A stretch of 64,000 bases of DNA from Nitrospirota bacterium (lineage in GTDB: Bacteria; Nitrospirota; UBA9217). Within the stretch, counting starts at the first letter, position 1. The number at the start of each line of letters is the position of its first letter. Shown here one piece after another: positions 39,254-62,099 of the stretch. The position numbers were made by a program, and so were the translations under genes. Under the pieces are notes generated by a model that worked only from the letters and a program-made list of their open reading frames with translations, made no database searches and was not told the origin of the DNA. The stretch is from NCBI GenBank assembly GCA_963751455.1, contig CAVVUN010000015.1, positions 1,504,001 to 1,568,000 on the forward strand, written 5' to 3'.

Positions 39254-39500
39254 TCAATATCTGAGCGCGGCAGTATCCTGCCAATAACTTGCGCCGTCAC
39301 CCCGACAGCTCCGCAATTGAATGTCTTTCTTGACAAAAAGCTCCATCTCACTATAATCGATCTAACCCAAGTGCCTGACTGAGATCCGGGATATGATATG
39401 ACTGATAGAGTAGCCGGTATATTGTCATAGTTGGCCTACAGCGTCCGATCGATGTCCTCGGAACGGGATGCAACCTCATTCTACTACGCGGGAGAAAATC

Positions 39501-45751: not shown

Positions 45752-46724
45752 ATGAGAAAGATCAGCCTGGAGATTGTTATTTCACTATCGTTTATTGCAG
45801 CCATGTTGCTTTCAGCCTGCGGTGGAAGCGGAGGCAGCGGTGGCGGCGCAGCAGCCGTAACATGGAAATCAGTGGCAATAGGATCTTCCCATACCGCAGC
45901 GATTGACAGCAACGGCAACCTGTGGACATGGGGGCTCAATATATACGGCCAACTCGGCGACGGGACTAATAACCAGAATAACACGCCTGCCAAAGCAGGC
46001 TCTGCCGCCGATTGGAAGACAATTGCGGCGTCCGGCGATAATGTCGCGATAAAAACGGATGGTACCTTGTGGGCATAGGGAATACTCAGGACAAGACCAT
46101 GCCGGGACTGCTGCTGACTGGAAAAGCGGAGCAATCACTGACCAAAATTCGTTTGCAATAAAGACTGATGGCACCCTCTGGGCATGGGGGGATAATTATT
46201 ATTATCAGCTCGGCATCGGCGATGACTGGAACGACAAATGGTCGCCGACTCAGGTAGGGACGGACACCGATTGGAAGGCGGTGTCGGCACGCTACCGTCA
46301 CGTTCTTGCCATAAAGACGGACGGTACGCTTTATACCTGGGGGGACAATGAGTACGGCCAGCTCGGGAACGGGGACAGCGGCAAATATAAGCAAGTAAAG
46401 GCCCCTGCCCGAATCGGCACAGATAGTGACTGGGCATCCGTATACGCCGGAAGCTACCATTCGTTCGCGTTGAAGACTGATGACACACTCTGGGCGTGGG
46501 GGTTAAACGGGGGCACGCTCGGAGACGGAACCACCGATCTCAAAAGTACGCCGACGATGATCGGCGCGGATACCGACTGGGCGTTCATCGCCACTCAGCA
46601 TGATATTACGTTCGCAATAAAAAATGACGGTTCGCTCTGGGCATGGGGGGAGAACATGTGGGGCCAGATCGGCGACGGAACCACGGACGACAAACTGATG
46701 CCGACCAGAATATCTGTCGAGTAA
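45752..46724 (+). pseudogene. RCC1-repeat lipoprotein, disrupted
   Basis: [12 protein letters not shown] repeats; TAG at 46076-46078 in a conserved Trp position, followed by a deletion/frameshift. Confidence 0.8.
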
Positions 46725-48099: not shown

Positions 48100-48436
48100 A
48101 TTTAAAAACCTGACTTTTTTCTTTTCTATCCGATATTCTTACTGATGAAAAGAAAGTTGCGGCGGTTTTATTCACGAACGAACATCCTTTTCGGTAGCTT
48201 CAGCATGGTGGTGTGAGCGAACCCGTGCCTTGAACGTTATAAAGCACCCCGAATAGACAAATTGAGATTCATTAAACAAGCCAGCTTCAAAAGCCGCCAT
48301 TTTTTTCGGCTTTAAAAGCAAAGGTTCCTGCGTCCGGCAAGCCAGCGTTTTATCGCGATAAAATCCCTTGACAGGATTCCCGGAAAAAAGCAAAAATAGG
48401 CTAAGAGTATCGGCAATACCTTGCCTACAAGGGCGC

Positions 48437-49729
48437 ATGACGAACGGCAATCAATTACCGAAGAATACAATATCATCAGGTGTCGAAAGTCTGGACACCC
48501 TTATCGACGGTTTTTCCATTGGGGACAATGTAGTCTGGGAAGTCGAATCCGGAACCGCCTACAGCACGTTCACCAGGAACTTCATTTCCCGGTCTTTCCA
48601 GGACGATCAAAAGGTCATTTACGTGAGTTTCAACCGGTCGCCGCAGACCGTGTTGAACGATCTGAACGCGATCATATCCCCCGATCACTTCACGCTGATT
48701 GATTGTTTCACTTCCGGGAAGGGGAAAAACGACAACACCTTTCTGAAATTTTACGAAAAAGCGGACGCGGGCGTCGTCAGGATAGAGGCTCCGCGCGACA
48801 TAGAACGGTTTACCTCGACCTTGAACGCAATCGAGGACCGGCTGCCGCCGGGCGCGCGCTACGTGTTTGACAGCCTTACCGGTATGCAGGACCTCTGGGG
48901 CGACGAAAACGATACACACCGGTTCTTTACCTATATGTGCCCGCGTCTCTACGATCTCGGCACCGTGGCCTACTGGATCCTCGAGAAAGAGGCGCACAGT
49001 CCGCGGTTCAAGGCGAACCTGCGGCACATTACGCAGGTCGTGTTCGATCTCGCAAAGCGCAAGAACAGCCTGTTCCTGAAGGCCCTGAAGCTGGAAGGAA
49101 GACAGGACCGGGAACTGTTCAAACCGCATCAATTCCACATCCGCGGCGACACTGTGGCGATTACTTCGCTCAAGCGCGAGCCGGCAACGGACATCGGCGA
49201 AAAACTGCGGGAGGAGCGGATCAGGGTCGGCATGAGCCAGAAAGAGCTTGCGGATAAGGTAGGTTTGACCGCAAGCTTTCTGTCGCAACTCGAAAACAAC
49301 CAGGTCAGTCCTTCCCTGAATACGTATATGCAGCTCTGCAGGGCGCTTGGCATCAACCCCGGGCACTTTCTCGGACCGATTGAGAAAAAGAACGAAACCA
49401 CGTGGCTGGTGCGAAGGGATGCCATATTTTCGAGAGTTCCGATCAAGGAGGACTACGCAAGGGTCTATGAAGCCGCATCCGGCAGAAAACTTGCGGCAAG
49501 GCTCGTTGTTCTGCCCGTAGGCGCTGCCATGAACCGGCACTTTTTTTATCATAAGGACGAAGAGTTTGTTTGCGTGCTTAACGGCACAGTATCAGTCACG
49601 GTCGAGGGCAGGGAAGAGATGGTCAAGGCAGGAGACATGCTCCATTTGCGCGATTCTTTTCCATCGCATTGGAAGAATGAAGGAGATAGGGAGGCTGAAT
49701 TACTTGTGCTATGGTCTGAAACTCTCTAA
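48437..49729 (+). CDS. Transcriptional regulator: KaiC/RecA-like domain, XRE HTH and cupin
   Basis: SSGVESLDTLIDG and YVFDSL; GMSQKELADKVGLTASFLSQLENN; HKDEEFVCVLNG. Confidence 0.85.
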   Translation: MTNGNQLPKNTISSGVESLDTLIDGFSIGDNVVWEVESGTAYSTFTRNFISRSFQDDQKVIYVSFNRSPQTVLNDLNAIISPDHFTLIDCFTSGKGKNDNTFLKFYEKADAGVVRIEAPRDIERFTSTLNAIEDRLPPGARYVFDSLTGMQDLWGDENDTHRFFTYMCPRLYDLGTVAYWILEKEAHSPRFKANLRHITQVVFDLAKRKNSLFLKALKLEGRQDRELFKPHQFHIRGDTVAITSLKREPATDIGEKLREERIRVGMSQKELADKVGLTASFLSQLENNQVSPSLNTYMQLCRALGINPGHFLGPIEKKNETTWLVRRDAIFSRVPIKEDYARVYEAASGRKLAARLVVLPVGAAMNRHFFYHKDEEFVCVLNGTVSVTVEGREEMVKAGDMLHLRDSFPSHWKNEGDREAELLVLWSETL

Positions 49730-49768
49730 TTAGTAAATTTTACAGGCGAAAATTTTTTATGTTCTTTA

Positions 49769-49787
49769 TCAAGTATTGCTTAATTTA
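49769..49787. promoter_or_regulatory. Operator-like site 1 (TCAAGTATTGCTTAATTTA)
   Basis: 17/19 identical to 49972-49990; dyad symmetry. Confidence 0.6.
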
Positions 49788-49971
49788 ATTATTAAAAATT
49801 AATAAATACTAAGTCTTTATTTGGATCGAAGGGAATGTGGGCCTTCATCATCAGGACGCAGTTTTTAGAATTCCTTTCTATGACAAGAAGAAGGAGGTGG
49901 TTAAAGCTAGCTGCTTGTTCACTGGAAGGTTTTATTAATGTGGATTGCCTGGCTTTTTTTTGCCTTCCCTG

Positions 49972-49990
49972 TCAAGTAACGCTTAATTTA
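49972..49990. promoter_or_regulatory. Operator-like site 2 (TCAAGTAACGCTTAATTTA)
   Basis: 17/19 identical to 49769-49787. Confidence 0.6.
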
Positions 49991-50076
49991 TCTCAAAAAA
50001 CTTAATAGTAGCTAATGTATTTTAGTAATGATATTGACCCATCGCCAGGCAAAAACTAATTTAAAAGGAGAGAACC

Positions 50077-51669
50077 ATGAATCTGTCACAACCAAATGCC
50101 AATGAAGCGACCAGAACAGTCAATCGATCCAGAAGTGTTTCGCCCATGAGCGGGCTATGCACCCGCTGCGTGGACGGATGCAAGGGCAGCTGCGAGGTTT
50201 TTAAAGCGACGTACCGGGGACGGGAGTTGCTTTATCCGGGGCCTTTCGGAAGCATCACTGCCGGCGGCGACAAGAACTACCCGGTCGATTATTCTCACCT
50301 CAACATTCACGGATACGCGCTCGGCGCAAAGGGACTTCCTTCCGGTCAGAAAGGGGACCCCGACACTGCCCGCTTCCCGAATGTCAACACCGAGACAAGC
50401 TACGGCTGGGATAAAAAAGTGAAGATGAGGGTTCCGATCTTCACCGGGGCGCTCGGATCCACGGAGATCGCCCGCAAGAACTGGGAACACTTTGCCGTGG
50501 GCGCGGCGATATCAGGCGTCACGATCGTATGCGGTGAAAACGTGTGCGGCATCGATCCGGGACTCGAATTGAACAGCAGCAAAAAAGTGAAGAAGTCGCC
50601 CGACATGGACCGCAGGATCGAGACCTATAAAAAGTACCATCAGGGTTTCGGCGAACTCCTGGTGCAGATGAATGTCGAGGACACCCGGCTGGGCGTCGCG
50701 GAATATATCATTGAAAAGCACAAGCTCGAAACCATAGAGCTGAAGTGGGGCCAGGGCGCCAAGTGCATCGGCGGAGAGATCAAGGTGGACAGTCTGGAGC
50801 GCGCTCTTGAACTGCAGAAACGGGGCTATATCGTTACGCCCGACCCCTCTGATCCCGTGGTGCAGGCTGCTTTTAAAGAGACGGCGATCAAGGAATTTGA
50901 ACGTCACAGCCGCCTCGGGTTCATCGGCGAGCAGGAGTTTTACGCCGAGGTTAACCGGCTGCGGGGCCTGGGCTTCAAGCGTGTCACGCTAAAAACCGGC
51001 GCATACGGCCTGCGCGAGCTCGCCATGGCTATCAAGTGGTGCTCGAAGGCCAAGATCGACCTGTTGACCATCGACGGCGCACCGGGAGGCACAGGCATGA
51101 GCCCCTGGCGCATGATGGAAGAATGGGGCATGCCCTCCCTGTATCTCCATGCCGCAGCGGCTGAGTTCGCAAAGAAGCTGACAGATAAGGGAGAACGTGT
51201 TCCGGACATCGCTTTTGCCGGCGGCTTCAGCAGCGAGGACGGCATATTCAAGGCCCTGTCGCTTGGAGCGCCGTTCGTGAAGGCCATTTGCATGGGCCGC
51301 GCACTGATGATCCCGGGCATGGTCGGCAAGAACATCGCCCAGTGGATAAAGGAGAAGGACATTCCGAAGTCGGTAAGCGAGTATGGTTCCACGGTGGAAG
51401 AGATATTCGTAAACTACGAGGACGTGAAAAAGCTGGTCGGGAGCAAGGAGATCGCCAACATTCCGCTCGGCGCAATCGGCATTTACAGCTACTCAAACAA
51501 GATCAAAGTGGGACTGCAGCAGTTCATGGCGGGCGCCCGTTGCTTCAATCTCGATTCTATTACGAGGAACGAGCTGATGTCCCTCACCGAGGAATGCGCG
51601 AAGGTCACCGGCATACCGTACATCATGAATTCCTATCGCGATGAGGCGATGAAGATAATAAATTCCTGA
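50077..51669 (+). CDS. FMN-binding glutamate synthase family protein
   Basis: IELKWGQGAKCIGGE, TIDGAPGGTG and AFAGGF motifs; N-terminal CTRCVDGCKGSC. Confidence 0.85.
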   Translation: MNLSQPNANEATRTVNRSRSVSPMSGLCTRCVDGCKGSCEVFKATYRGRELLYPGPFGSITAGGDKNYPVDYSHLNIHGYALGAKGLPSGQKGDPDTARFPNVNTETSYGWDKKVKMRVPIFTGALGSTEIARKNWEHFAVGAAISGVTIVCGENVCGIDPGLELNSSKKVKKSPDMDRRIETYKKYHQGFGELLVQMNVEDTRLGVAEYIIEKHKLETIELKWGQGAKCIGGEIKVDSLERALELQKRGYIVTPDPSDPVVQAAFKETAIKEFERHSRLGFIGEQEFYAEVNRLRGLGFKRVTLKTGAYGLRELAMAIKWCSKAKIDLLTIDGAPGGTGMSPWRMMEEWGMPSLYLHAAAAEFAKKLTDKGERVPDIAFAGGFSSEDGIFKALSLGAPFVKAICMGRALMIPGMVGKNIAQWIKEKDIPKSVSEYGSTVEEIFVNYEDVKKLVGSKEIANIPLGAIGIYSYSNKIKVGLQQFMAGARCFNLDSITRNELMSLTEECAKVTGIPYIMNSYRDEAMKIINS

Positions 51670-51824: not shown

Positions 51825-52823
51825 ATGATAAATAAAACCCTTCACTCGATTCTTTCCGTACTTGACAAATATCCGATCATTGTCGGATCTCGCGAACTCT
51901 CAAAACAGCTAAAGCAGCACGGCGTGGAGCTGACCGAACGAACCGTGCGGTACTATCTGAAGAGGCTCGATGCGCGGGGCTATACCGAGGTGTTCGGCAA
52001 GGAAGGCAGGAAGATAACTCCGAGAGGAAGAGAGGAACTGAGCAATTCACTCGTTTCGGATAAGGTGGGATTTGTTATCAGCCGGATAGAAACGCTCTCC
52101 TACCTGACTTCGCTTGATATGGCGACGATGGAAGGGGATATTATCCTGAATATATCGTATTTTCCCAAGAATAAATTTAGTAAGGCAATGGATCTGCTGA
52201 AACCTGTCTTTGCTTCTCCGTATGTAATGAGCGATCGTGTTATGGTGGCTTCCAACGGAGATACCATCAACGATATCCCGGTCCCGAGGGGGATGGCTGC
52301 GCTCGGCACTGTCTGCAGCGTCACGATCAACGGCATATTTCTCAAAGCAGGAATCCCGGTAACGTCCCGGTTCGGCGGAGTCGTTGAGACTGCTGATGGG
52401 GCGCCAAAGCGGTTCGTGTCCGTCATCAGTTACGATGGATCGTCGCTGGATCCGCTTGAAATGTTCATTAAGAGTAAAATGACAGCGGTATCAAAAGCGG
52501 TTAATGGACGGTCCGGAAGAATTCTGGCCAGTTTCAGAGAAATTCCGGTTGTCTGCCTGGAAAAGGCAAAAAAACTCGCGAAGAGTATGACGGAAAGGGG
52601 AATCCGGGGCATTCTGATGATCGGAAGTCCGAACAAGCCTCTGCTCGAGATTCCTGTAGGAATTGACAAAGTGGGGGTTGTGATCGTTGGCGGCCTTAAT
52701 CCAATTGCTGTTCTGGAGGAGAACGGTATTGTCACCGACAGTAAAGCCATGTCCACGCTCTACGATTATACACGGCTCGTCTCATTCAGAAATGTTGCCA
52801 GGAACGGCCTTTCCCCAGCTTAA
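51825..52823 (+). CDS. nrpR: NrpR-type nitrogen repressor (winged HTH plus DUF128/NRD domain)
   Basis: LTERTVRYYL...GRKITPRGREEL; TVCSVTINGI, YDGSSLDPLE and GGLNPIA motifs. Confidence 0.85.
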   Translation: MINKTLHSILSVLDKYPIIVGSRELSKQLKQHGVELTERTVRYYLKRLDARGYTEVFGKEGRKITPRGREELSNSLVSDKVGFVISRIETLSYLTSLDMATMEGDIILNISYFPKNKFSKAMDLLKPVFASPYVMSDRVMVASNGDTINDIPVPRGMAALGTVCSVTINGIFLKAGIPVTSRFGGVVETADGAPKRFVSVISYDGSSLDPLEMFIKSKMTAVSKAVNGRSGRILASFREIPVVCLEKAKKLAKSMTERGIRGILMIGSPNKPLLEIPVGIDKVGVVIVGGLNPIAVLEENGIVTDSKAMSTLYDYTRLVSFRNVARNGLSPA

Positions 52824-53022
52824 TATCCTGATCCCGACAACTATTTAGGCTGTGTGGATCTATTCCCTTTTTTGATGGCATTATATTGCCGTGCAAACAC
52901 CGTGGGAGTCAGTCCTGCTGTCCGAACGCCCGCTGCGTCGGGATGGGCTTTTCTGATGTCCCAATAGGTCGAAATTGCGCCCGCGCTAAAAATTTCTTCT
53001 TTCTTCTCCCTGTAATTTTTTC

Positions 53023-53077
53023 TTGACACTCGAGCAGAAACCGGTGTATTGTACTTTTCGACGGCAACGTTTTGCCG
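53023..53077 (+). promoter_or_regulatory. Sigma70 promoter followed by a candidate NrpR operator
   Basis: TTGACA (53023)-18 nt-TATTGT (53047); cGGCAacgtttTGCCg at 53062-53077. Confidence 0.6.
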
Positions 53078-53080
53078 ACG

Positions 53081-53110
53081 AAAAAGCCCCTCAGGGAGGG
53101 GCTTTTTTTT
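53081..53110 (+). terminator. Terminator-like hairpin upstream of mvhD
   Basis: aaaaagcccctc-agg-gaggggc followed by 8 T. Confidence 0.7.
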
Positions 53111-53150
53111 GCCGCATTTTTAGGCAATCGATAGCGAAGAAGAGGCGGGA

Positions 53151-53609
53151 ATGAAGAAAGCGAACGAGTCAGAATACGCGCCCCGAATCGTGGTGGCTTA
53201 TTGTCATAATACGGTATCGCCCACCGAGGAACTGCGTGAGGGACAATATTCGGGAAAAGGGTTCAGCGCTTTTTTTGCCGCGCTGCCCTGTTCGAGCAAA
53301 ATTGAACCCTCCTATCCGGTTAAAATTCTGGCCGACGGGGCGGACGGAGTGGTGATTGTGGCATGTCCGGAGAGCCGCTGCAGGTTTATGGTAGGCAGTG
53401 TTCGGGCAGAGAAAAGGGTCAACTATGTGCGGGCCCTTTTGGATCAAGCGAAAATCGGCGCCGAGCGCGTCACCTTGGAACGCGGTGAAAGCCTTTCGAC
53501 AAAAGATCTTCTGGAGATCGCGCAGCGTCGTGTAAAGCCGTTGAATTTATTGGGACCCAATCCCATGAAAACATCAAAAAGAACCACAGAGCCCATCGAG
53601 AAAAAATAA
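53151..53609 (+). CDS. mvhD: MvhD/FlpD-like [2Fe-2S] subunit
   Basis: YC, LPCSSKI, GADGV and CPESRCRF cysteine pattern; IGAERV. Confidence 0.85.
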   Translation: MKKANESEYAPRIVVAYCHNTVSPTEELREGQYSGKGFSAFFAALPCSSKIEPSYPVKILADGADGVVIVACPESRCRFMVGSVRAEKRVNYVRALLDQAKIGAERVTLERGESLSTKDLLEIAQRRVKPLNLLGPNPMKTSKRTTEPIEKK

Positions 53610-53661
53610 ATAATCAACATCTCTGTGTTATCGAGTAACATCCCATAAGGGGGAATGGAAA

Positions 53662-54333
53662 ATGATCATAGCTGAATGGAAACCCCTGTCCGAACTGGTG
53701 GAAAAGCTGAAGGGGCATTCCAAAGTTCTGGTTGCAGGCTGCGCGACCTGTGTCGCCGAATGCGCCGCCGGCGGTGAACGTGAAGTGGAGACCCTGGCGC
53801 CGCTGCTGCAGATGGCCCTGCAGAAAGAAGGCTGCACCGTTACTGTTCGTACCAAGACGTTGGAGCGTCAGTGCGAATGGGAATTTGTGGAACAACTGGC
53901 CGATGTGGTGCCCGAGGTTGACGCAATCGTGAGTCTTGCCTGCGGCATCGGTGTTCAAGCACTGGCCGAGCGGTTCCCTGATCTATCGGTTTATCCCGGA
54001 GTGAACACAACCTCTCTGGCAATCCGGCAAGAGCCCGGAATCTGGCTTGCACGGTGCGCCGCGTGCGGCGATTGCGTTCTGGGCGAGACCTTCGGCCTGT
54101 GTCCGATCGCCCGCTGCGCAAAAAGCCTGTCGAACGGGCCGTGCGGCGGAACGAGAAAAGACGGGAAGTGCGAAATTGACGAGAACATCGACTGCGTCTG
54201 GTACCAGATCTACCAACGGGCAAAATCCCGGGGCAAGGTAGAGCAGCTCATAAAAGTCCGGAAGCCCAAGAACTGGTCGAACTCAGGCCACGGGGGCCCC
54301 AAACGGATGGTACGGGAGGATTTGCGGTCATGA
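53662..54333 (+). CDS. metV: Methylene-THF reductase Fe-S/Zn subunit (MetV, MTHFR_C)
   Basis: GCATCVAEC, RQCE, SLACGIG, CAACGDC, CPIARCAKSLSNGPCGG and CVW motifs. Confidence 0.88.
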   Translation: MIIAEWKPLSELVEKLKGHSKVLVAGCATCVAECAAGGEREVETLAPLLQMALQKEGCTVTVRTKTLERQCEWEFVEQLADVVPEVDAIVSLACGIGVQALAERFPDLSVYPGVNTTSLAIRQEPGIWLARCAACGDCVLGETFGLCPIARCAKSLSNGPCGGTRKDGKCEIDENIDCVWYQIYQRAKSRGKVEQLIKVRKPKNWSNSGHGGPKRMVREDLRS

Positions 54334-55268
54334 CAAAAGCGGGTACCAGACTGGAAAAAACACTGCGCGCCGGGCATTTTGCCGTGACGGTCGAAGTGGG
54401 GCCGCCGCGCGGCGCTAATCCTGAAGATGTCGTGCGCAAGGCACGGACGCTCAAAGGCATTGCCGACGGATACAACGTCACCGACAACCAGACCGCAGTG
54501 GTGCGCTTGTCGAGCATTGCCGGCGCCCGGCTTCTGCTGGATGCCGGATGCGAGCCCGTCATGCAGATGACCTGCCGCGACCGCAACCGTATTGCCCTGC
54601 AGTCGGACCTGCTGGGCGCCTGGGCATTGGGAATGCGTAACTGCCTCTGCATTTCAGGCGACCATCAGAAAGCGAGCGCATCCGGAAAACTGAAAGGTCA
54701 TCCCGGCGCCAAGAACGTGTTTGACGTTGATTCGATCCAGTTGATCTCAATCATGAAAGATATGCGCGATGCGGGCGTTCTGGAGAGCGGGGACCCTATC
54801 TCCAGCCCCACGCCGTTTTTTATCGGTGCTGCGTGGACGCCGCTTGCACCGCCCGAGGAGTTCCGCGTACTGCGGCTTCAAAAGAAGATCGAGGCAGGTG
54901 CGGATTTTATTCAGACGCAGGCCGTATTCGACATGAAGCGGTTTGCGGCTGCGGTTTCAGCGGCGCGGGAGAGGGGCCTCACTGATAAAGCCGCCATTCT
55001 TGCGGGCATCATCGTTCCGAAATCAGCAAAGATGCTCGAATACATGAACGCCAATGTGCCGGGCGTGGAGGTTCCGGAATCCCTGATCAAGCGAATGGCC
55101 GGGGCCGCGAACCAGCGTGAGGAAGGGTTCAAGATTACAGTTGAGTTGATCCAGGCTGCCCGGGAGATTCCCGGTGTGAAGGGCGTGCATCTGCAGGCCA
55201 TCGAATCCGAAGAGGTACTGCCGGAGATCCTCAAATCTGCCGGACTCCTGCCGCGACCGCAAGTGTAA
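54330..55268 (+). CDS. metF: Methylenetetrahydrofolate reductase
   Basis: EVGPP, NVTDN, QMTCRDRNRIALQSDLLGA and KKIEAGADFIQTQ motifs. Confidence 0.9.
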   Translation: MTKAGTRLEKTLRAGHFAVTVEVGPPRGANPEDVVRKARTLKGIADGYNVTDNQTAVVRLSSIAGARLLLDAGCEPVMQMTCRDRNRIALQSDLLGAWALGMRNCLCISGDHQKASASGKLKGHPGAKNVFDVDSIQLISIMKDMRDAGVLESGDPISSPTPFFIGAAWTPLAPPEEFRVLRLQKKIEAGADFIQTQAVFDMKRFAAAVSAARERGLTDKAAILAGIIVPKSAKMLEYMNANVPGVEVPESLIKRMAGAANQREEGFKITVELIQAAREIPGVKGVHLQAIESEEVLPEILKSAGLLPRPQV

Positions 55269-55351
55269 ACTGACTCGGCCAAGTTTGAGCCAAAAAAGTC
55301 ACGGTATCGGTTACAACGCCCGTTTCGGTGAGCGGTCTATTTTTGGGCCAA

Positions 55352-55365
55352 GGCAACCATGTGCC
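55352..55365. promoter_or_regulatory. Second candidate NrpR operator
   Basis: GGCAaccatgTGCC in the intergenic gap upstream of the glutamate synthase genes. Confidence 0.5.
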
Positions 55366-55429
55366 GTAAAACCCGATAGCAAGAATTTGATCCGTAGCTG
55401 ACTACGTTCCCGGATGGTAATAAAACGAT

Positions 55430-58396
55430 ATGTCGAAGAAATATCACATCAAAGTTGAAAATGCGCCGGCCCGCTTTCCGGCCGTGGCCCGGTATTCCCA
55501 GTTGGAAACCGAGGGGTGTCTGGGCTGCCTTAAGTGCGTAAAACGTACCTCGTGCGTTTACTCCGTTCACGAAAAGCGCTCGTTCGATCCGGCCCAGATC
55601 GTGGATAAGGCCGATGCCGCGTGCGTGGGCTGCATGCAATGCGTCCAGGAATGCAAGAAGAACATTCTCAGCCGCGCAAAAAATCCCCGGTACGAAAAAA
55701 TGGGGAATGAGTACTGGACGCCGGCGCTCATTGCCGGCATCTGGAAGCAGGCAGAAACCGGCAAGATACCCGTATCCGGCGCCGGGTACCGCGGCCCGTT
55801 CAGCGGCCCGGGGTTCGATCGGATGTGGACCGACATGTCGGAAATCGTCAGGCCTACCCGCGATGGAATTCACGGCCGCGAATATATCAGTACGGTCATT
55901 GAACTCGGCCGAAAGCCCTCCAAGCTTGTTTTCGATGCTCAGGGCGGCATGGTGACCGAGCCTCCGCTGTTCATCGAACTGCCTCTTCCGATTGTAGTGG
56001 AAGCTCCGCGGTTCCCGCATGTATCGTCCCAAACAATCGAAGCCCTTGCCCAAGCAACGCATCGGAGCGGGACATTGATGCTTGTCGATGTGAAAGCCGC
56101 GCAGAATATTTCGCCCCGCCTGAGAAGCCGTGTGATGGTTATATTTAATCCGGAGAGGGATGATCCGGCCATTCTTAAAGACGTTCCAGCGGCCCAGATT
56201 GCCTATTCGGCAACCGTGCTGAAAGATATACAGAAACTAAAAAATGCAAAGCCTGATCTTGTTGTTTCCGTGCGCGTTCCCCTTGATGAAAATGCGGTAA
56301 AGCTTGCCAGCAAGCTTGCTCTTGCCGGGGTTGAGATTATCCATCTGTATGCGGATGCAAACGGCAGGGGAGTAAAAAACCGAAAAGCCGATTTTGTGAC
56401 CACGCTGCTGAAGGAAGTGCATTTCAAACTGGTCGATGAAGGCGTGCGCCAACAAGTGACAGTCCTGGTTTCCGGCGGCATTGCCATGGCCGAACATGTT
56501 GCCAAGGCGATACTCTGCGGGGCTGACGGCGTGGGCGCGGACATTGCGGTTTTGATCGCGATGGAATGCCGTTTATGCAAGGAATGCAATTCTGCCATTG
56601 CCTGCCCGGTAGACCTGGGCACGGTCCCGGTGGAATGGGCCGAGAAGCGGATCGTGAACCTGCTCGGTTCGTGGCACTCCCAACTGATCGAACTGATGGG
56701 CGCCATGGGTATCCGCGAGGTACGCCGTTTGCGGGGAGAACTGGGCAGGGCAATGTTTTTTGAAGACCTGGAGCGGGAGAATTTCGGCCCGCTGTTCGGA
56801 GAACGGGTGACGGGAAACCATGCAAAACCGCTGGTACTTCGTGACACCCCGCCGCCGGTTCACGGCAACGGACACGTGGAAACGCCGGGCGGTATTCATC
56901 TGGAAGTCAAAACCACTCCTTCCCGCTATCGCAACAAGTTCGGCAAGTTTAAAGTTGTGCGGACTTCCGCCTGCATTGCATGCGGTAAGTGCGCCGAGGT
57001 GTGCGCTTACGGCGTTCTGGTCAAGGCCGGCAGCCGCATGCTTGCCCCCAAATCTCATTTGTGTGTGGGCCGGGAACATTGCCGAAGCAAAAAACGGTTC
57101 TGCGCCGACAATTGCCCGAAAACTGCCCTGCGTGTAGGCAGAGATCCGGTTTTCGAAACGCTCGGAGATTCGCGGTGGACCCCGGATCTTCTGCTGGCGA
57201 CCTGGCATCAGGCCGAGACCGGCCGTCCGCCGAAAGGCGGACTGGAGTACCGGGTGGGAAATTCGGGCGGCGGGTTCGATTGCATGGACTTCAATTTCCC
57301 CGAGCAGCATCCGGATCCTTCTCTGAAGCCGCAGGACATAGACTTGTCCATTCCGCTTAATCGCAGGAAGGACGGCCGGCCCGAGGTGAAGATCGGGTTC
57401 CCGGTCTACGGCGGCGGAATGAGTTTCGGGTCCGTGAGCCTCACCACTATCGTTTCACGAGCGCGTGCGTACACAGCGATGAATTCATTCACCTGCACCG
57501 GTGAAGGCGGTTATCCGGAGGAGCTCAAACCGTACGATGATCATGTTATTACTCAGGTGGCGACCGGGCTGTTCGGAGTCCGCGAGGAAACCATTCAGCG
57601 GGTGCGCATCGTCGAATTCAAATATGCGCAGGGCGCGAAGCCGGGTCTCGGCGGTCACCTGCTCGGCGACAAGGTAACGCCTTCAGTGGCGAAAATGCGG
57701 GAAGCCGTGGTCGGTTCGGCCCTCTTTTCTCCGTTCCCGTTTCACTCGGTCTATTCGGTGGAGGACCACAAAAAGCATGTCGATTGGATGAAGGTGATCA
57801 ATCCCCGCGCCCTGGTTTCGGTCAAGGTTTCCACGCCTTCGGACGTGGACATGGTGGCCGTCGGTAGTTTTTACGCAGGCGCAAACATCATCCATCTTGA
57901 CGGAAGCTATGGAGGCACCGGCGCCGCACCGGACATCGCTAAAAAGAATATCGCGATGCCGATAGAATACGCCATACCCAAAGTGCACCGTTTTCTGATG
58001 AACGAGGGGATCCGCGACGAGATGACGCTGATCGTCTCGGGCGGCTTGCGTACTGCCTGGGATGTTGCCAAGGCGATTGCGCTTGGCGCCGACGGCGTCG
58101 TGATCGGCACGGCAGACATGGTGGCGCTCGAATGCATCCGGTGCGCAAATTGCGAGAGCGGACGGGGGTGTCCGCGCGGCATAGCCACAACCGATCCTGT
58201 ACTGACCAAGATGTATGACGAGGCGTGGGGCTCGCAGAGGCTCATAAATCTTTACCATTCCTGGATGCTGCAGCTCCAGGACATTCTCTGGCGTTTCGGC
58301 ATGAAGAGCGTGCGGGAACTGGTGGGTCGTTCGGACCTGTTAACGCACCGCGACTACGAGAAACGCACGGAATACCGGCGGGCGGAGTCAGGGTAA
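55430..58396 (+). CDS. Glutamate synthase subunit with two ferredoxin plus FMN-barrel modules
   Basis: CLGCLKC/CVGCMQC and CIACGKC ferredoxin motifs; second barrel has GGMSFGS, TGEGG, QVATG, KYAQGAKPGLGGHL, DGSYGGTGA and CIRCANC. Confidence 0.88.
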   Translation: MSKKYHIKVENAPARFPAVARYSQLETEGCLGCLKCVKRTSCVYSVHEKRSFDPAQIVDKADAACVGCMQCVQECKKNILSRAKNPRYEKMGNEYWTPALIAGIWKQAETGKIPVSGAGYRGPFSGPGFDRMWTDMSEIVRPTRDGIHGREYISTVIELGRKPSKLVFDAQGGMVTEPPLFIELPLPIVVEAPRFPHVSSQTIEALAQATHRSGTLMLVDVKAAQNISPRLRSRVMVIFNPERDDPAILKDVPAAQIAYSATVLKDIQKLKNAKPDLVVSVRVPLDENAVKLASKLALAGVEIIHLYADANGRGVKNRKADFVTTLLKEVHFKLVDEGVRQQVTVLVSGGIAMAEHVAKAILCGADGVGADIAVLIAMECRLCKECNSAIACPVDLGTVPVEWAEKRIVNLLGSWHSQLIELMGAMGIREVRRLRGELGRAMFFEDLERENFGPLFGERVTGNHAKPLVLRDTPPPVHGNGHVETPGGIHLEVKTTPSRYRNKFGKFKVVRTSACIACGKCAEVCAYGVLVKAGSRMLAPKSHLCVGREHCRSKKRFCADNCPKTALRVGRDPVFETLGDSRWTPDLLLATWHQAETGRPPKGGLEYRVGNSGGGFDCMDFNFPEQHPDPSLKPQDIDLSIPLNRRKDGRPEVKIGFPVYGGGMSFGSVSLTTIVSRARAYTAMNSFTCTGEGGYPEELKPYDDHVITQVATGLFGVREETIQRVRIVEFKYAQGAKPGLGGHLLGDKVTPSVAKMREAVVGSALFSPFPFHSVYSVEDHKKHVDWMKVINPRALVSVKVSTPSDVDMVAVGSFYAGANIIHLDGSYGGTGAAPDIAKKNIAMPIEYAIPKVHRFLMNEGIRDEMTLIVSGGLRTAWDVAKAIALGADGVVIGTADMVALECIRCANCESGRGCPRGIATTDPVLTKMYDEAWGSQRLINLYHSWMLQLQDILWRFGMKSVRELVGRSDLLTHRDYEKRTEYRRAESG

Positions 58397-61047
58397 TGAA
58401 AACTAAGATGAACACTATTTACAATTCGTGGCGCGGTACGGGCCGAGATCCGCGCTTCCCGGAAATTATTGCCGCATCGCGGGCCGGCCTTTTGACCGGC
58501 GCAGAACATGTACGGGAAAAAGACGCTGAGGAAGGCGGCTGCGGCGTGGTCGGGTTTGCAGCCACTGTGCCGGTGCGCGGGCGCCATATTTTCGAGCCGT
58601 CCATCCAGATGCACAACCGGGGTAACGGCAAAGGCGGCGGGATTGCTGCCGCTTCTCTTGAACCCGGGTACCTGGGAGTGGATGACGCGACCCTGCAAAA
58701 CGATTATATCCTCCAGATTGCGCTGATCGATCCGACCGCCGAGAAAGAGGTGGAGAAGTTCGGCATTGCCCCGTGGCTCCAGGTGGACCACAAAACCCGC
58801 ATACAACCCGTTGCGGACCACCGGGATGTCGGCCTGGATGTAAAGCCGCCGGATATCGTGAGATACTTTGTGCGCGTCAAGGACAAGGTGCTCAGCAAAT
58901 TTGCCAAGGAGCACGGATTGGAAAAATCCGACAGACGCCTGGTGGAGGATGAATTCATTTTTCGCAACAGTATTCAGATCAACCGCCGTTTTTACGCCTC
59001 CTTGGGCAACAAACGCGCCTTTGTAATGTCCCATGCGCGTAATCTCGTGATTTTCAAGATCGTGGGGTATGCTGAGCAGGTGGTGCAGTATTATCAGCTC
59101 TCCGATATGCGGGCCAGAATCTGGATCGCGCATCAGCGCTATCCCACCAAAGGCCGGGTATGGCATCCTGCGGGCGCACATCCGTTCATCGGGATGAATG
59201 AAGCGCTCGTCCATAACGGTGACTTTGCCAACTATTTCGGAGTGACCGAATACCTGCGGCAGCATAACCTCGTTCCCAATTTTTTGACCGATACGGAAGT
59301 CTCAGTTCTTCTTTTCGATCTGCTGACCCGCGTATACAATTATCCGCTTGAGTATGTGATCGAGGCAATGGCGCCTACGACAGAGAATGATTTCGATGCA
59401 TTGCCCGAACCGAAGAAGAAGATATACCGGGCCATTCAGGCGCAGCACATGCACGGATCGCCCGACGGCCCGTGGTTCTTCATCATCGCTCGGAGCAACC
59501 CGGACCAGCTTCAGTACCAGCTTCTGGGTATCACCGACACCTCAATGCTCAGACCGCAGGTGTTCGCGATCCAGGAGGGAGACGTATCCATCGGCCTGGT
59601 CGGTTCTGAAAAACAGGCCATCGATGCCACATTGAAATCCCTGGCCGAGGAGGACCCGCGCTTCCGTCATGTTGCCGACCGGTACTGGAATGCGCGCGGC
59701 GGCAGCCACACCGATGGCGGCGCGTTCGGTTTTACGGTAAAGACGGTCAACGGTAATACGATGCTTTCCTGTGCCGACAAATTCGGTAACCCCATCACTG
59801 CGCCGGCCGGTCAGTGGAGAATCGACGAGAAGGGGAGCATTACCATAGCTGAACAATGGCGCACCCGGATCGCAAACGGCCTTTCAAGCGGCAGCGCTGC
59901 CGAATTATTCAAGGATCTGACTACTGAGTTTCGCTCCTGGGGTCTTGACCAGGTTCGCGAAGCAATTGACGAGATTTGCACGGCTGCCGGCGGCGGTGAT
60001 CGGAATTTAGAGGCGGCTCTGGAGGTGCTCTCGCTCCTGCAGGACCGCCGATACGATTGCGGCCCCAATAAAAGAAGCGCGATTCTCCACCTTATTCAGG
60101 GAGGGATTGACCGGCTTCTTGACTCGGTGCCGGCAATAACAAGCAACGGCTCCGGCCGATATCGCCGGGTGGATTTCTCCACACGCAATCAGCTTGCTGC
60201 GCCGCGGAGAGAAGACGCTATTCTGGTGGTCTTCAGCCGGGATTTCCAGCCTGAGGGGGACGATTGCGATGCCTTGCTGATGGTCCAGGCATACCGGCAG
60301 GGCTGGAAGCGGTTCATCGTGTACGGGCTGAAGGGTCAGCGGTTCACCGGATGCAGCTTCGGACCTGCATCCGATGGGGTCCGCATCGACGTATACGGCA
60401 GTTCAGGCGACTATATAGCATCCGGCATCGACGGAATGGAACTCCATATTCACGGCAACGGCCAGGACCAACTCGGTCAGATACTCAAACGCGGTACGCT
60501 CGTGGTTCACGGCGATGTGGGCCAGGCGTTCATGTATGGTGCAAAAGGCGGCGAGATATTCATCATGGGCAATGCAGCCGGCCGTCCGCTGATCAATGCA
60601 GCGGGCCGTCCGCGCGTCATCATCAACGGAACCTGCCTCGATTTTCTCGCGGAGTCTTTTATGGCCGGCGATCCCTTCAACGGCGGCGGGTTCGTTGTGC
60701 TGAACGGAATAGAATTCGACGACCGTGGCACGGTCCGCGACCAGCATTCGCCGTACCCTGGAGCAAACCTTTTTTCGCTTGCCTCGGGCGGGGCAATTTA
60801 CGTACGGGACCCTCATTCCACAATCGGCAAAGATAAGCTGAACGGCGCCGAGTTCGCCGAAATGACCAATGAGGATTGGAACCTGATTGAGCCATATCTT
60901 CGTAAAAACGAGCTGCATTTCGGTATTTCCATCGAACGAGATCTGCTCGTTATTGACGGCAAACCCAGTTCGCCGCTGTCGGTCTACCGGAAAGTGCGTC
61001 CGGTGAAAGTGGCGGCCCTTGCGAAGCAAACTGTTCCTGCTGATTAA
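58396..61047 (+). CDS. Glutamate synthase amidotransferase (Ntn) plus GXGXG subunit
   Basis: CGVVG nucleophile, HNRG, AHQRYPT, AHPF and HNGD motifs; C-terminal GxxGD/GAKGG repeats; translationally coupled (TAATG). Confidence 0.88.
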   Translation: MKTKMNTIYNSWRGTGRDPRFPEIIAASRAGLLTGAEHVREKDAEEGGCGVVGFAATVPVRGRHIFEPSIQMHNRGNGKGGGIAAASLEPGYLGVDDATLQNDYILQIALIDPTAEKEVEKFGIAPWLQVDHKTRIQPVADHRDVGLDVKPPDIVRYFVRVKDKVLSKFAKEHGLEKSDRRLVEDEFIFRNSIQINRRFYASLGNKRAFVMSHARNLVIFKIVGYAEQVVQYYQLSDMRARIWIAHQRYPTKGRVWHPAGAHPFIGMNEALVHNGDFANYFGVTEYLRQHNLVPNFLTDTEVSVLLFDLLTRVYNYPLEYVIEAMAPTTENDFDALPEPKKKIYRAIQAQHMHGSPDGPWFFIIARSNPDQLQYQLLGITDTSMLRPQVFAIQEGDVSIGLVGSEKQAIDATLKSLAEEDPRFRHVADRYWNARGGSHTDGGAFGFTVKTVNGNTMLSCADKFGNPITAPAGQWRIDEKGSITIAEQWRTRIANGLSSGSAAELFKDLTTEFRSWGLDQVREAIDEICTAAGGGDRNLEAALEVLSLLQDRRYDCGPNKRSAILHLIQGGIDRLLDSVPAITSNGSGRYRRVDFSTRNQLAAPRREDAILVVFSRDFQPEGDDCDALLMVQAYRQGWKRFIVYGLKGQRFTGCSFGPASDGVRIDVYGSSGDYIASGIDGMELHIHGNGQDQLGQILKRGTLVVHGDVGQAFMYGAKGGEIFIMGNAAGRPLINAAGRPRVIINGTCLDFLAESFMAGDPFNGGGFVVLNGIEFDDRGTVRDQHSPYPGANLFSLASGGAIYVRDPHSTIGKDKLNGAEFAEMTNEDWNLIEPYLRKNELHFGISIERDLLVIDGKPSSPLSVYRKVRPVKVAALAKQTVPAD

Positions 61048-61100
61048 AACCCTACCCTAACGTGGGCACTCAGGCCCCGAAAAGCCAAACACGAATTAAA

Positions 61101-61134
61101 GCCTGTCAGACTAGGTTATCTGACAGGTTTTTTT
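61101..61134 (+). terminator. Intrinsic terminator
   Basis: cctgtcaga...tctgacagg stem plus T run. Confidence 0.8.
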
Positions 61135-61354
61135 ATTTGATGACGAGTCCAAATGCATTGGTTGCGGCTTTGTGCCGGTGTCAGCCCATGCGCGCGTGGG
61201 AGAAATAGCCCTTTGCCCGGACATGGTGAAGGGCTTTTTATTATTTGAAATTCATATTGATGCAATGGAAAAAATATTATATGCTATATGCGGATGATTC
61301 TGATTGGCAGAACCGTCTTATTATCATTCGGGAAATCGGTATAAGGAGCAAACC

Positions 61355-62099
61355 ATGCCGGAACAGTTCAAGATCACCTATCAATTCAGATTGAGCAGCG
61401 GAATCGAAAAGAAATTTACTCTCGTGCTTGACGGCAAGACGCTCTCTTTGATACAGGAACAGAAAAATGACCGTCCGGAATGGGCCCGCCTGGAGTTTCA
61501 TCAGTGCGCGAACTGTCCGCTTAATACTACCCTTACACCCTATTGTCCGATTGCAGTCAATCTTTCCGGTGTTGCCTGGGAATTCGGGGAAATTACCTCT
61601 GAAGAAAAGGCAGCCATTACCGTCGTTGTAAAAGAACGTGCCTATTTCAAGGCGGCGATCAATACAGGAGGGGCTGAGCCCTCTGCTCGGCATCATCATG
61701 GCATGCAGCGGATGTCCGGTCATGGAACCGCTCAAGCCGATGGTCCGCTACCACCTCCCATTCGCAAGCCTGGATGAGACAGTCTTCAGGATGACTTCAA
61801 TGTTCCTGATGGCGCAATTCTTACGCAGCCAGTCAGGCAAAAAACCTGAATGGAAACTGGATGGTTTGGCAAAAATATATGCAGAGGTCAAAAAATTGAA
61901 CAAGGACTTCGGGAAAAGAATGATAACGGCGGCACGAAATGATGCAAACGTTCATGCACTTGTAAATTTGAACGTTTTCGCGGTCATGGTGCCGATGAAG
62001 GCTGAAAACATGATGAAGGAGATCGCGCCTTACTTCTCAGTCTTACCTGAGGTAGTCGGGTTTATTTGTCAAAGCCCCGGGAGCAAAGGTACTAATTAA
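61355..62099 (+). pseudogene. Cys-rich conserved hypothetical protein (DUF6901-like) with a frameshift near 61657
   Basis: PEWARLEFHQCANCPL...CPIA continues as SIQEGLSPLLGIIMACSGCP...HLPFA in the +1 frame. Confidence 0.7.

Follow-up and report, generated by a model that had tools for sequence, protein, structure and literature searches.

In the available text of a review on glutamate synthase (GltS), the electron donors named are NADPH, NADH or ferredoxin (PMC8097209), and F420 is proposed as donor for some archaea in the accessible part of a second study (PMC9012536). MvhD, MetV and MetF belong to another described system. According to the accessible parts of two studies, they occur together with HdrABC in the methylene-tetrahydrofolate reductases (MTHFR) of Moorella thermoacetica and Sporomusa ovata (PMC9430772, PMC8515935), and the S. 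ovata MvhD is a linker that was pulled down with MetF and HdrA (PMC9430772). Here, we describe an operon of a Nitrospirota bacterium in which mvhD, metV and metF stand directly before the genes of a split glutamate synthase devoid of GltD. Together with an adjoining nrpR it occupies positions 51,825 to 61,047 of a stretch of 64,000 nucleotides, referred to as the window (assembly GCA_963751455.1, contig CAVVUN010000015.1, positions 1,504,001 to 1,568,000 of the forward strand).

The operon encodes a real, conserved and apparently undescribed variant of glutamate synthase, and MvhD-MetVF is likely its electron-input module. We are evenly divided on the complete reading, namely that the five genes constitute a GltD-less glutamate synthase on which MvhD docks and which obtains its electrons from the oxidation of methyl-tetrahydrofolate (methyl-THF) by MetVF. 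No title or abstract opening in the literature searched describes the operon or a methyl-folate-driven glutamate synthase; supplementary annotation tables could list the genes.

Gene content and comparison with described glutamate synthases

The window genome (5.72 Mb in 15 contigs, 100% complete, 5.4% contamination) has its closest amidotransferase matches in metagenome-assembled genomes (MAGs) of Nitrospirota, at 83-85% identity. Open reading frame (ORF) calling and family scans placed nrpR, mvhD, metV, metF and two glt genes on the forward strand, where an earlier sequence-only reading had put them. The features are as follows.

51825..52823, + strand: nrpR, single-unit NrpR-family repressor with winged helix-turn-helix (HTH) and NRD1/2 (PF01995, 5e-84, and PF08461)
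53151..53609, + strand: mvhD, [2Fe-2S] adaptor (PF02662)
53662..54333, + strand: metV, iron-sulfur (Fe-S) subunit of a MetVF-type methylene-THF reductase (PF12225)
54330..55268, + strand: metF, flavin subunit (PF02219)
55430..58396, + strand: two-barrel synthase, 988 amino acids (aa), twice Fer4 plus Glu_synthase (family scan)
55430..56815, + strand: N-half of the synthase, aa 1-462, 2x[4Fe-4S] ferredoxin domain and degenerate barrel
56915..58396, + strand: C-half of the synthase, aa 496-988, second ferredoxin-like domain and canonical flavin mononucleotide (FMN)/2-oxoglutarate barrel with four-Cys cluster motif
58396..61047, + strand: N-terminal nucleophile (Ntn) amidotransferase with GXGXG beta-helix, 883 aa (PF13522, PF00310 and PF01493 below cut-off, though the PF01493 bit score is above cut-off)
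61098..61131, + strand: terminator-like hairpin ending the operon (terminator scan)

Stop and start codons overlap between metV and metF and between the two synthase genes. The ORF and Pfam scan of the window revealed no gltD, hdr or acs gene adjacent to the operon, as noted before, and within the operon the Pfam scan found no NAD(P)H-binding, hydrogenase or Hdr gene. That the 988-aa protein contains two barrels, the first of them degenerate, had been overlooked.

The C-half aligns with Azospirillum brasilense GltB 857-1169 (E 1e-51), and its residues Q709, K737, R757, K799, T830, R874 and T894, which we presume to serve FMN and 2-oxoglutarate, are invariant in 53/53 sequences. In the amidotransferase, the catalytic Cys49 behind a propeptide is found in all 77 sequences covering the position, and H246/R248/T251, H273/N274/G275 and D299, presumably the glutamine site as in GltB motifs, in 80/80. 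By analogy, the protein pair would act as a glutamate synthase, the amidotransferase hydrolyzing glutamine and the C-barrel reducing 2-iminoglutarate.

The sequence-only reading had also considered an N-methylglutamate-type enzyme, which would join a folate- or amine-derived methyl unit to glutamate. Split GltB-like subunits do stand next to a folate enzyme here, and N-methylglutamate synthase is likewise a split GltB homologue. Its reaction needs no Fe-S wire, though; the glutaminase Cys, the glutamine-site residues and the FMN/2-oxoglutarate residues are all invariant; the genome has a single glutamine-synthetase-family gene, and no separate gamma-glutamylmethylamide synthetase was found in it; and the operon sits in an ordinary glutamate-synthase slot (see below). 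We consider this reaction highly improbable and the proposal unsupported. A search with PF04268 (N-methylglutamate dehydrogenase, SoxG) gave no match, but its controls were silent too.

The N-half is a duplicate of the C-half (28% identity, E 4e-43) without the 2-oxoglutarate loops, and it keeps its 2x[4Fe-4S] domain as well as a CxxCxxC..CP motif in the barrel. This barrel probably binds no FMN, as its Asp366 is invariant and it lacks the Gly-Thr phosphate motif seen in the C-half. An AlphaFold model of the synthase (predicted local distance difference test, pLDDT, 78; predicted TM score, pTM, 0.82) has confidence values below 50 over residues 29-66, 115-130 and 134-152 and was not used for cluster distances. 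Foldseek aligned it with GltS structures along some 960 columns (seven GltS hits, TMq 0.40-0.52), and in this model the N-barrel fills the place of the GltB central domain. The N-terminal ferredoxin domain resembles the HdrA of the genome only in short stretches, at the level of motifs. A duplicated barrel with retained Fe-S ligands bears on the origin of the GltB central domain by duplication of the FMN barrel, a question raised in the available text of the review (PMC8097209).

Structures of GltBD (A. brasilense 1EA0, 2VDC and 6S6S, also 7MFM) and of ferredoxin-GltS (Synechocystis 1LLW and 1OFD) served for comparison. They share with the window enzyme the N-terminal-Cys amidotransferase, the arrangement of central and FMN barrel, the GXGXG helix and the FMN/2-oxoglutarate residues. 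In contrast to both, the window chains are split otherwise, with the barrels on one and the amidotransferase and GXGXG helix on the other; a ferredoxin-like domain and a four-Cys motif accompany each barrel, and the 'central' barrel keeps its Fe-S ligands. Where NADPH-GltBD has GltD, the operon has mvhD-metV-metF. Ferredoxin-GltS is a single chain with one [3Fe-4S] cluster and uses free ferredoxin, whereas the window enzyme is split and has extra ferredoxin domains and four-Cys motifs. Archaeal-type split synthases, such as the putative F420-dependent FGltS with FrhB (described in the accessible part of PMC9012536), and the GltB1-GltB2-(GXGXG::GltD) enzymes in the family of the window genome resemble it in their split subunits, a ferredoxin domain before the FMN barrel and a lineage-variable input. 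They differ from it in the barrel, which is duplicated here, and in the input, which is MvhD-MetVF here and a flavin adenine dinucleotide (FAD) oxidoreductase in a sister family. The operon belongs neither to NADPH-GltBD nor to ferredoxin-GltS nor to the Hdr-type MTHFR.

Conservation of the linkage, the extra MetV-MetF copy and a sister family

Of 207 GTDB loci matching the amidotransferase, we annotated the best 80 against local references. In 40 of these 80 related loci mvhD-metV-metF lies directly upstream of the two-barrel gene; the others have mvhD alone (13), mvhD-metV (1), too short a sequence (25) or, at an assembly gap, none of the genes (1). According to record titles, the loci stem from Nitrospirota, Planctomycetota, Chloroflexota, Desulfobacterota, Fibrobacterota, Verrucomicrobiota and other phyla, and the mvhD-metV-metF-glt neighbourhood of the window is kept across phyla. 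No hdr gene matched in any of the 80 loci. Neighbours include nrpR (10 loci), glnA (8) and glnB (6), and the barrels are on separate genes in L081, L082, L085-L087 and L089.

Relatives of the window genome mostly carry gltB1-gltB2-(GXGXG::GltD) instead. nrpR is present in 10 of 40 relatives, where the GltD-type operon usually comes next after it, and in L011 and L012 both operons are present in tandem, with an nrpR of its own before each (L099, a repeat of L012, is no independent case). Judged by gene order, the MvhD-MetVF operon takes the slot of the ordinary glutamate synthase.

Searching the window genome by tblastn, we found another mvhD-metV-metF on contig C3, one more mvhD-like region on C8 and, where C15 begins, part of a metF. 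From N-terminal motifs, we take the genes before the C3 set to be hdrC-, hdrB- and hdrA-like and those after it cooC- and acsB-like; the C15 metF fragment is presumably followed by acs-like genes, and the C8 region presumably is qmo/sat-like. Given the hdr-linked set on C3, the metVF of the operon is an extra copy. C15:1-10000 and C3:1-15000 represent two Wood-Ljungdahl-like clusters, each with a metF, one of which could be foreign or misassembled, considering the 5.4% contamination.

As to GltD, a TIGR01317 search of the genome, which is 100% complete with 5.4% contamination, gave nothing over cut-off; its top-scoring match passes TIGR01316 and is preceded by an nfnA-like gene. A full-length GltB of 1440 aa with a three-Cys cluster motif is encoded at C15:1329131-1333453 without an adjacent gltD. 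It adjoins a thioredoxin-reductase-like gene and may be a ferredoxin-type enzyme. The genome further encodes one glutamine synthetase (a single PF00120 gene, behind glnB), two amt genes, one glutamate dehydrogenase (GDH)-family gene, HdrA and a QmoB-type protein.

The 50 genomes behind operon loci were searched for MetV (PF12225), leaving out seven further candidates. It occurs in 49 of them, and among the 36 genomes whose metV is glt-linked, 34 contain a further PF12225 match. Sixty other MetV regions fetched for comparison are mostly hdrA-mvhD-metV-metF. In a quick IQ-TREE phylogeny of 89 MetF, one clade (SH-aLRT 99) unites 37 of the 41 glt-linked copies with L128, a copy at a contig end; the C3 MetF of the window genome falls outside it, but close. 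For MetV, 39 of 41 glt-linked copies form one clade (FastTree 0.99, 101 rows). The window metVF is not the housekeeping copy but one of a distinct glt-linked lineage.

Residues of the module are intact. In MetV, 13 Cys are invariant (41/41), in MvhD C18, C47, C72 and C77 (46/46), and the MetF folate-site residues E22, D111, Q197 and H287, identified by alignment to the Thermus thermophilus MTHFR, are kept in 38/38. Clade-typical residues near the site (G119-K120-L121, W169, Q289) are common to the genome's own Wood-Ljungdahl MetF. With the folate residues invariant and the clade-typical ones shared in this way, nothing suggests that the folate site was lost. We considered a changed substrate on account of clade-specific MetF residues and rejected it, as these are mostly shared with Wood-Ljungdahl MetF. 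Nine positions do set the clade apart from its nearest Wood-Ljungdahl sisters, including A198/V199 and L288 beside active-site residues.

These nine positions would suit a MetF that oxidizes NAD(P)H, with MetF-MetV-MvhD as a plain substitute for GltD. E. coli MetF can oxidize NAD(P)H, the slot is held by a GltD fusion in relatives, and some members of the family to which the sister module belongs use NADPH. Against this stand the invariant folate-catalytic Glu and Asp, the larger clade-typical changes being common to Wood-Ljungdahl MetF, and the MetVF-type enzymes tested, which do not use NAD(P)H as far as the accessible part of the study tells (PMC8515935). We hold NAD(P)H oxidation to be unlikely.

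Compared with HdrABC-MvhD-MetVF as described in the accessible parts of PMC9430772 and PMC8515935, the window operon agrees in its mvhD-metV-metF trio, in which Cys and folate-site residues are likewise conserved. In contrast, hdrABC is missing from the operon and from all 80 loci, the predicted partner of MvhD is the ferredoxin domain of the synthase, the metVF form a separate clade next to a canonical hdr-linked copy kept in the genome, and the proposed direction is reversed.

A comparison sample of 220 genomes from one phylum (Planctomycetota-centred) contains distant homologues of the N-half (40-44% identity) in six genomes, none of them beside mvhD or metVF. Three have, directly upstream, a protein composed of FAD_binding_4, FAD-oxidase_C and 2x[4Fe-4S], and three (L162, L164, L165) have no adjacent input gene; Pfam detects no Fer4 domain in the N-half frames of L164 and L165, which are GC-rich and may be miscalled. 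The upstream genes are as follows.

L160:1927-4275: FAD oxidoreductase with HdrC-like 2x[4Fe-4S] domain, directly before the two-barrel synthase
L161:9613-11565: FAD oxidoreductase of the same build and position
L163:1239-3074, - strand: FAD oxidoreductase of the same build and position

The nearest solved relatives of this oxidoreductase, all weak, are of the vanillyl-alcohol oxidase (VAO) family, e.g., alkyl-dihydroxyacetonephosphate (DHAP) synthase, DprE1 and LctD. It seems to be without the metal-binding His/Glu motif which we take to mark 2-hydroxyacid dehydrogenases. We also considered a dependence of the whole two-barrel family on the Wood-Ljungdahl pathway; this idea is unsupported, with acsB in two of the six distant homologues' genomes and mvhD/metVF adjacent in none.

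For the FAD oxidoreductase we analyzed the best 80 of at least 317 metagenome loci (L168-L247). Among these, the N-half lies at most 400 bp downstream in 68, 11 are too short and one is unlinked; mvhD, metV and metF occur in 0/80, and recurrent genes are glnA (15), nrpR (7) and glnB (5). The ferredoxin Cys are kept in 62/62 of the FAD-type synthases, the residues predicted to touch MvhD are different, and most of these synthases have lost the Cys motif of the N-barrel, with C380 and C392 each in 5/62 versus 56/59 in MvhD-type synthases; as the FAD-type loci are related by descent, these counts reflect one or a few events rather than 62. The two flavin-plus-Fe-S modules exclude each other from a shared slot, and the best interpretation is that they are alternative electron inputs.

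This exclusivity would be left unexplained if the genes encoded separate, merely co-regulated enzymes, i.e., a ferredoxin-type split synthase and an extra MTHFR on one nitrogen-controlled transcript with no exchange of electrons. Such an arrangement agrees with the lack of metVF in 13 of the 80 loci (and of metF in one more), and with nitrogen or biosynthetic neighbours such as glnA, glnB and what presumably are amt and purF-like genes. However, mvhD stays with the synthase in the 13 loci where metVF is lost, the N-barrel Cys motif tracks MvhD-type loci, and the co-fold of MvhD and synthase, given below, passes. We judge separate enzymes to be improbable. For the mvhD-only loci, a VhuAG hydrogenase as donor was set aside, with MetV encoded elsewhere in 12 of the 13 genomes; no hydrogenase search was made.

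Predicted docking and the proposed electron route

Co-folding of synthase residues 1-600 with MvhD 8-142, one of the checks proposed with the sequence-only reading, gave a score of 0.76, as against 0.00 for the best of three controls. Runs agree in at least 85% of contacts, with a partner pLDDT of at least 87. Among solved pairs 116 of 157 attain the mark, as do 2 of 215 mismatched pairs, a calibration that holds only roughly here because our own alignments fed the co-fold. The predicted interface comprises the first ferredoxin domain (23-29, 52-59, 81-90), the Cys loop of the N-barrel (384-393) and the second ferredoxin domain (508-512, 568-573). Binding of MvhD to the N-terminal ferredoxin domain of the synthase is supported by this prediction.

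Linkage, the separate clade, intact residues, the co-fold and the swap in the sister family together make MvhD-MetVF the likely input. In the proposed route, MetF would oxidize methyl-THF to methylene-THF and pass electrons from its flavin to the MetV clusters and on to the [2Fe-2S] of MvhD. For HdrABC-MvhD-MetVF the opposite flow has been proposed, and there HdrA holds the position of the synthase. MvhD would be in contact with the 2x[4Fe-4S] domain at the N-terminus of the synthase, with the Cys loop of its N-barrel and with its second ferredoxin domain, leading to FMN, where the C-terminal barrel would reduce the 2-iminoglutarate formed after glutamine hydrolysis by the amidotransferase. 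The housekeeping HdrCBA-MvhD-MetVF, whose genes are seen elsewhere in the genome, would regenerate methyl-THF.

The couple 2-oxoglutarate plus ammonium/glutamate lies at -126 mV, and glutamine hydrolysis contributes -14 kJ/mol. For methylene-THF/methyl-THF, the accessible part of one study gives -200 mV (PMC9430772). Computed from these values, electron transfer from methyl-THF to glutamate amounts to about -14 to -28 kJ/mol and from NADPH to -37 to -51 kJ/mol; the reverse direction is uphill, and ferredoxin gives a larger driving force. MetVF of Clostridium ljungdahlii does not use NAD(P)H, as far as the accessible part of its description goes (PMC8515935). acsB was found in 40 of the 50 operon genomes versus 42 of the 220 comparison genomes, a contrast between different lineages that is suggestive only.

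Several observations weigh against electron input from methyl-THF. The operon is patchy, being carried by 2 of 40 relatives of the window genome, and the full-length GltB and the GDH-family gene imply that its enzyme need not be essential. Four of the 41 glt-linked MetF, all from split-barrel loci, fall outside the clade. In 13 of the 80 loci mvhD occurs without metV and metF, and the MetV found elsewhere in 12 of these 13 genomes is in no case in the glt-linked clade, so that MetVF is either not obligatory or shared. MvhD matches 5ODC, 7BKB, 8RVU, 9SFI and 9SW2, and the co-fold, whose calibration is rough as stated, may pass by likeness to solved MvhD-HdrA complexes. The acsB contrast is no controlled comparison, and 10 of the 50 operon genomes, MAGs of unstated completeness, have no acsB match. 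The driving force is modest, and a path over low-potential [4Fe-4S] clusters must include uphill steps, as it does in GltS according to the available text of the review (PMC8097209). Finally, C. ljungdahlii MetVF takes electrons from reduced ferredoxin in vitro, as stated in the accessible part of PMC8515935.

The last point fits a complex with two sinks, in which outside electrons, from reduced ferredoxin or from NADH via an HdrA encoded elsewhere, would be shared by the synthase FMN and MetVF, so that glutamate and methyl-THF are made together when nitrogen is short. The several exposed Fe-S domains of the synthase, the homologues L162, L164 and L165 without adjacent input gene, the HdrA and QmoB-type protein encoded in the genome and the larger driving force from ferredoxin point in the same direction. 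On the other hand, a second copy making methyl-THF would be redundant where another MetV is present (34/36 genomes), no hdr gene occurs among the 80 loci, and the exchange of MvhD-MetVF for an FAD oxidoreductase in one slot is simpler as a swap of inputs than of side-sinks. We regard the two-sink complex as a doubtful alternative, though a less remote one than the others considered here.

Input through MvhD-MetVF remains the reading we prefer. The proposal of a redox module serving a GltD-less synthase is upheld by the linkage, the extra gene copy, the lack of a GltD over cut-off, the co-fold and the sister-family swap; methyl-THF as its donor we infer, with chances that we see as balanced. 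If true, this would add a new donor class and a direct wire from the methyl branch of the Wood-Ljungdahl pathway to ammonium assimilation. Anaerobes would have a way to dispose of the electrons that methyl-THF oxidation releases at -200 mV, which is a known problem of thermodynamics, and MvhD would be a general adaptor able to dock on an enzyme other than HdrA. More tentatively, and with somewhat less confidence than in the donor, we envisage a widespread, undescribed family of two-barrel synthases with plug-in flavoprotein inputs that draw on weak carbon donors of about -200 mV, methyl-THF here and, as a guess, a 2-hydroxyacid in the sister branch. In that case, methyl-group electrons that are out of reach for NAD+ would flow directly into nitrogen assimilation, and energy-poor anaerobes would save NADPH and ferredoxin.

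Regulation and neighbouring genes

In Methanococcus maripaludis, the NrpR operator is GGAA-N6-TTCC according to the accessible part of PMC2723118. The window NrpR, the only copy in the genome (one tblastn match), is like that system in its Pfam domains, the spacing of half-sites and the adjoining nitrogen-assimilation genes. It is unlike it in the candidate site, GGCA-N6-TGCC, and in the absence of exact sites before glnB-glnA and gltB or around amt genes. The following sites concern its possible action.

52877..52890, no strand: GGCA-N6-TGCC, possible second operator, absent at this position in four relatives
53023..53052, + strand: promoter of sigma-70 type, TTGACA-18-TATTGT, 10/12 matches, best-scoring in the region
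53063..53076, no strand: palindrome GGCAA-N4-TTGCC, 11 bp after the -10 box
53086..53110, + strand: hairpin of the mvhD leader, with 7-bp G+C stem and a T run behind it, read from the sequence
55352..55365, no strand: GGCA-N6-TGCC before the synthase gene, imperfect palindrome with no predicted promoter

The motif GGCA-N6-TGCC has seven matches in the window versus 1.21 expected, a number reached by 0 of 100 shuffles. Both promoter boxes are kept in 5/5 aligned sequences, of which one differs at a single position of the -10 box. Of the four closest relatives, two have the 53063 palindrome exactly, one has it with one mismatch and one has lost it. This palindrome is likely a repressor operator, with NrpR as the best candidate to bind it. 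The site at 55352 is absent from 4/4 closest relatives aligned and probably incidental. The same palindrome had been claimed before both gene blocks; the site before mvhD is conserved, while the one before the synthase is neither conserved nor a perfect palindrome and has no promoter.

After nrpR in the relatives' regions, an exact GGCA-N6-TGCC is found in seven of ten, the archaeal GGAA-N6-TTCC in one and neither in two. Among MvhD-type loci the palindrome precedes mvhD in 4/9 with nrpR versus 1/36 without. Among the best 80 of at least 317 FAD-type loci, a site within 500 bp occurs in 0/7 with nrpR versus 14/71 without (11 GGCA, 3 GGAA), and over wider ranges two of the seven with nrpR have exact sites. 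The link between NrpR and the palindrome appears good in the window's family and mixed elsewhere.

We conclude from these sites and the gene order that control of the operon by NrpR is likely; a repressor, likely NrpR, would sit at the start site and be released when nitrogen is short. The earlier notion of a nitrogen-regulated module would agree with the gene context, and nrpR is optional: present at 10 of 80 related loci, it is an accessory to the operon. A genome-wide NrpR regulon was considered and rejected, with no exact site before glnB-glnA (400 bp), gltB (400 bp) or the Wood-Ljungdahl hdrC, nor around the amt genes. Across the genome GGCA-N6-TGCC has 150 matches, 11 of them outside called ORFs. 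Two matches outside called ORFs, at window positions 39269 and 41118, precede a Pfam-less 306-aa protein and a PAS histidine kinase. ANTAR hairpins were likewise dismissed as an explanation of the palindromes, as by our own reading of the sequence the sites are not twin hairpins; a search with PF03861 (ANTAR) gave no match, but its controls were silent too. The hairpin in the mvhD leader is present in 5/5 aligned leaders, weaker in L012, and was not listed by the terminator scan. It is terminator-like, yet placed where termination would stop the operon.

Upstream of nrpR, two genes had been overlooked before, an HTH/cupin regulator (48368-49729) and a further glt-like gene.

50077..51669, + strand: glt-like gene, 530 aa, FMN barrel alone (PF01645, 2e-15), just upstream of nrpR

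The 530-aa gene adjoins nrpR in nine of ten relatives' regions, whichever synthase comes next, but is present in only 3 of the 80 related loci and is not a core part of the operon. The regulator has a KaiC-like N-terminal part, and within the family the pair (48368-51669) accompanies nrpR, where a second paralogue of 55% identity often stands in tandem. A domain like the N-terminus of this regulator is fused to PPDK_N (phosphoenolpyruvate (PEP)-synthase-like) in a protein of about 870 aa at L020:2971-5592, for which the domains were checked. The fusion is found at 12 other loci of the MvhD-type survey and at 13 FAD-type loci, sometimes behind a GAF sigma-54 activator.

Elsewhere in the window, a DUF6901 gene (61304-62099) is split into two overlapping frames by an apparent frameshift near 61650, and a repeat-rich lipoprotein-like gene (45752-46724) into two frames by one near 46070. 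Positions 21414-26093 encode a 1559-aa surface protein with immunoglobulin (Ig)-like and beta-helix parts, and positions 16254-18008 a 584-aa ribonucleotide reductase composed of barrel and all-alpha domains.

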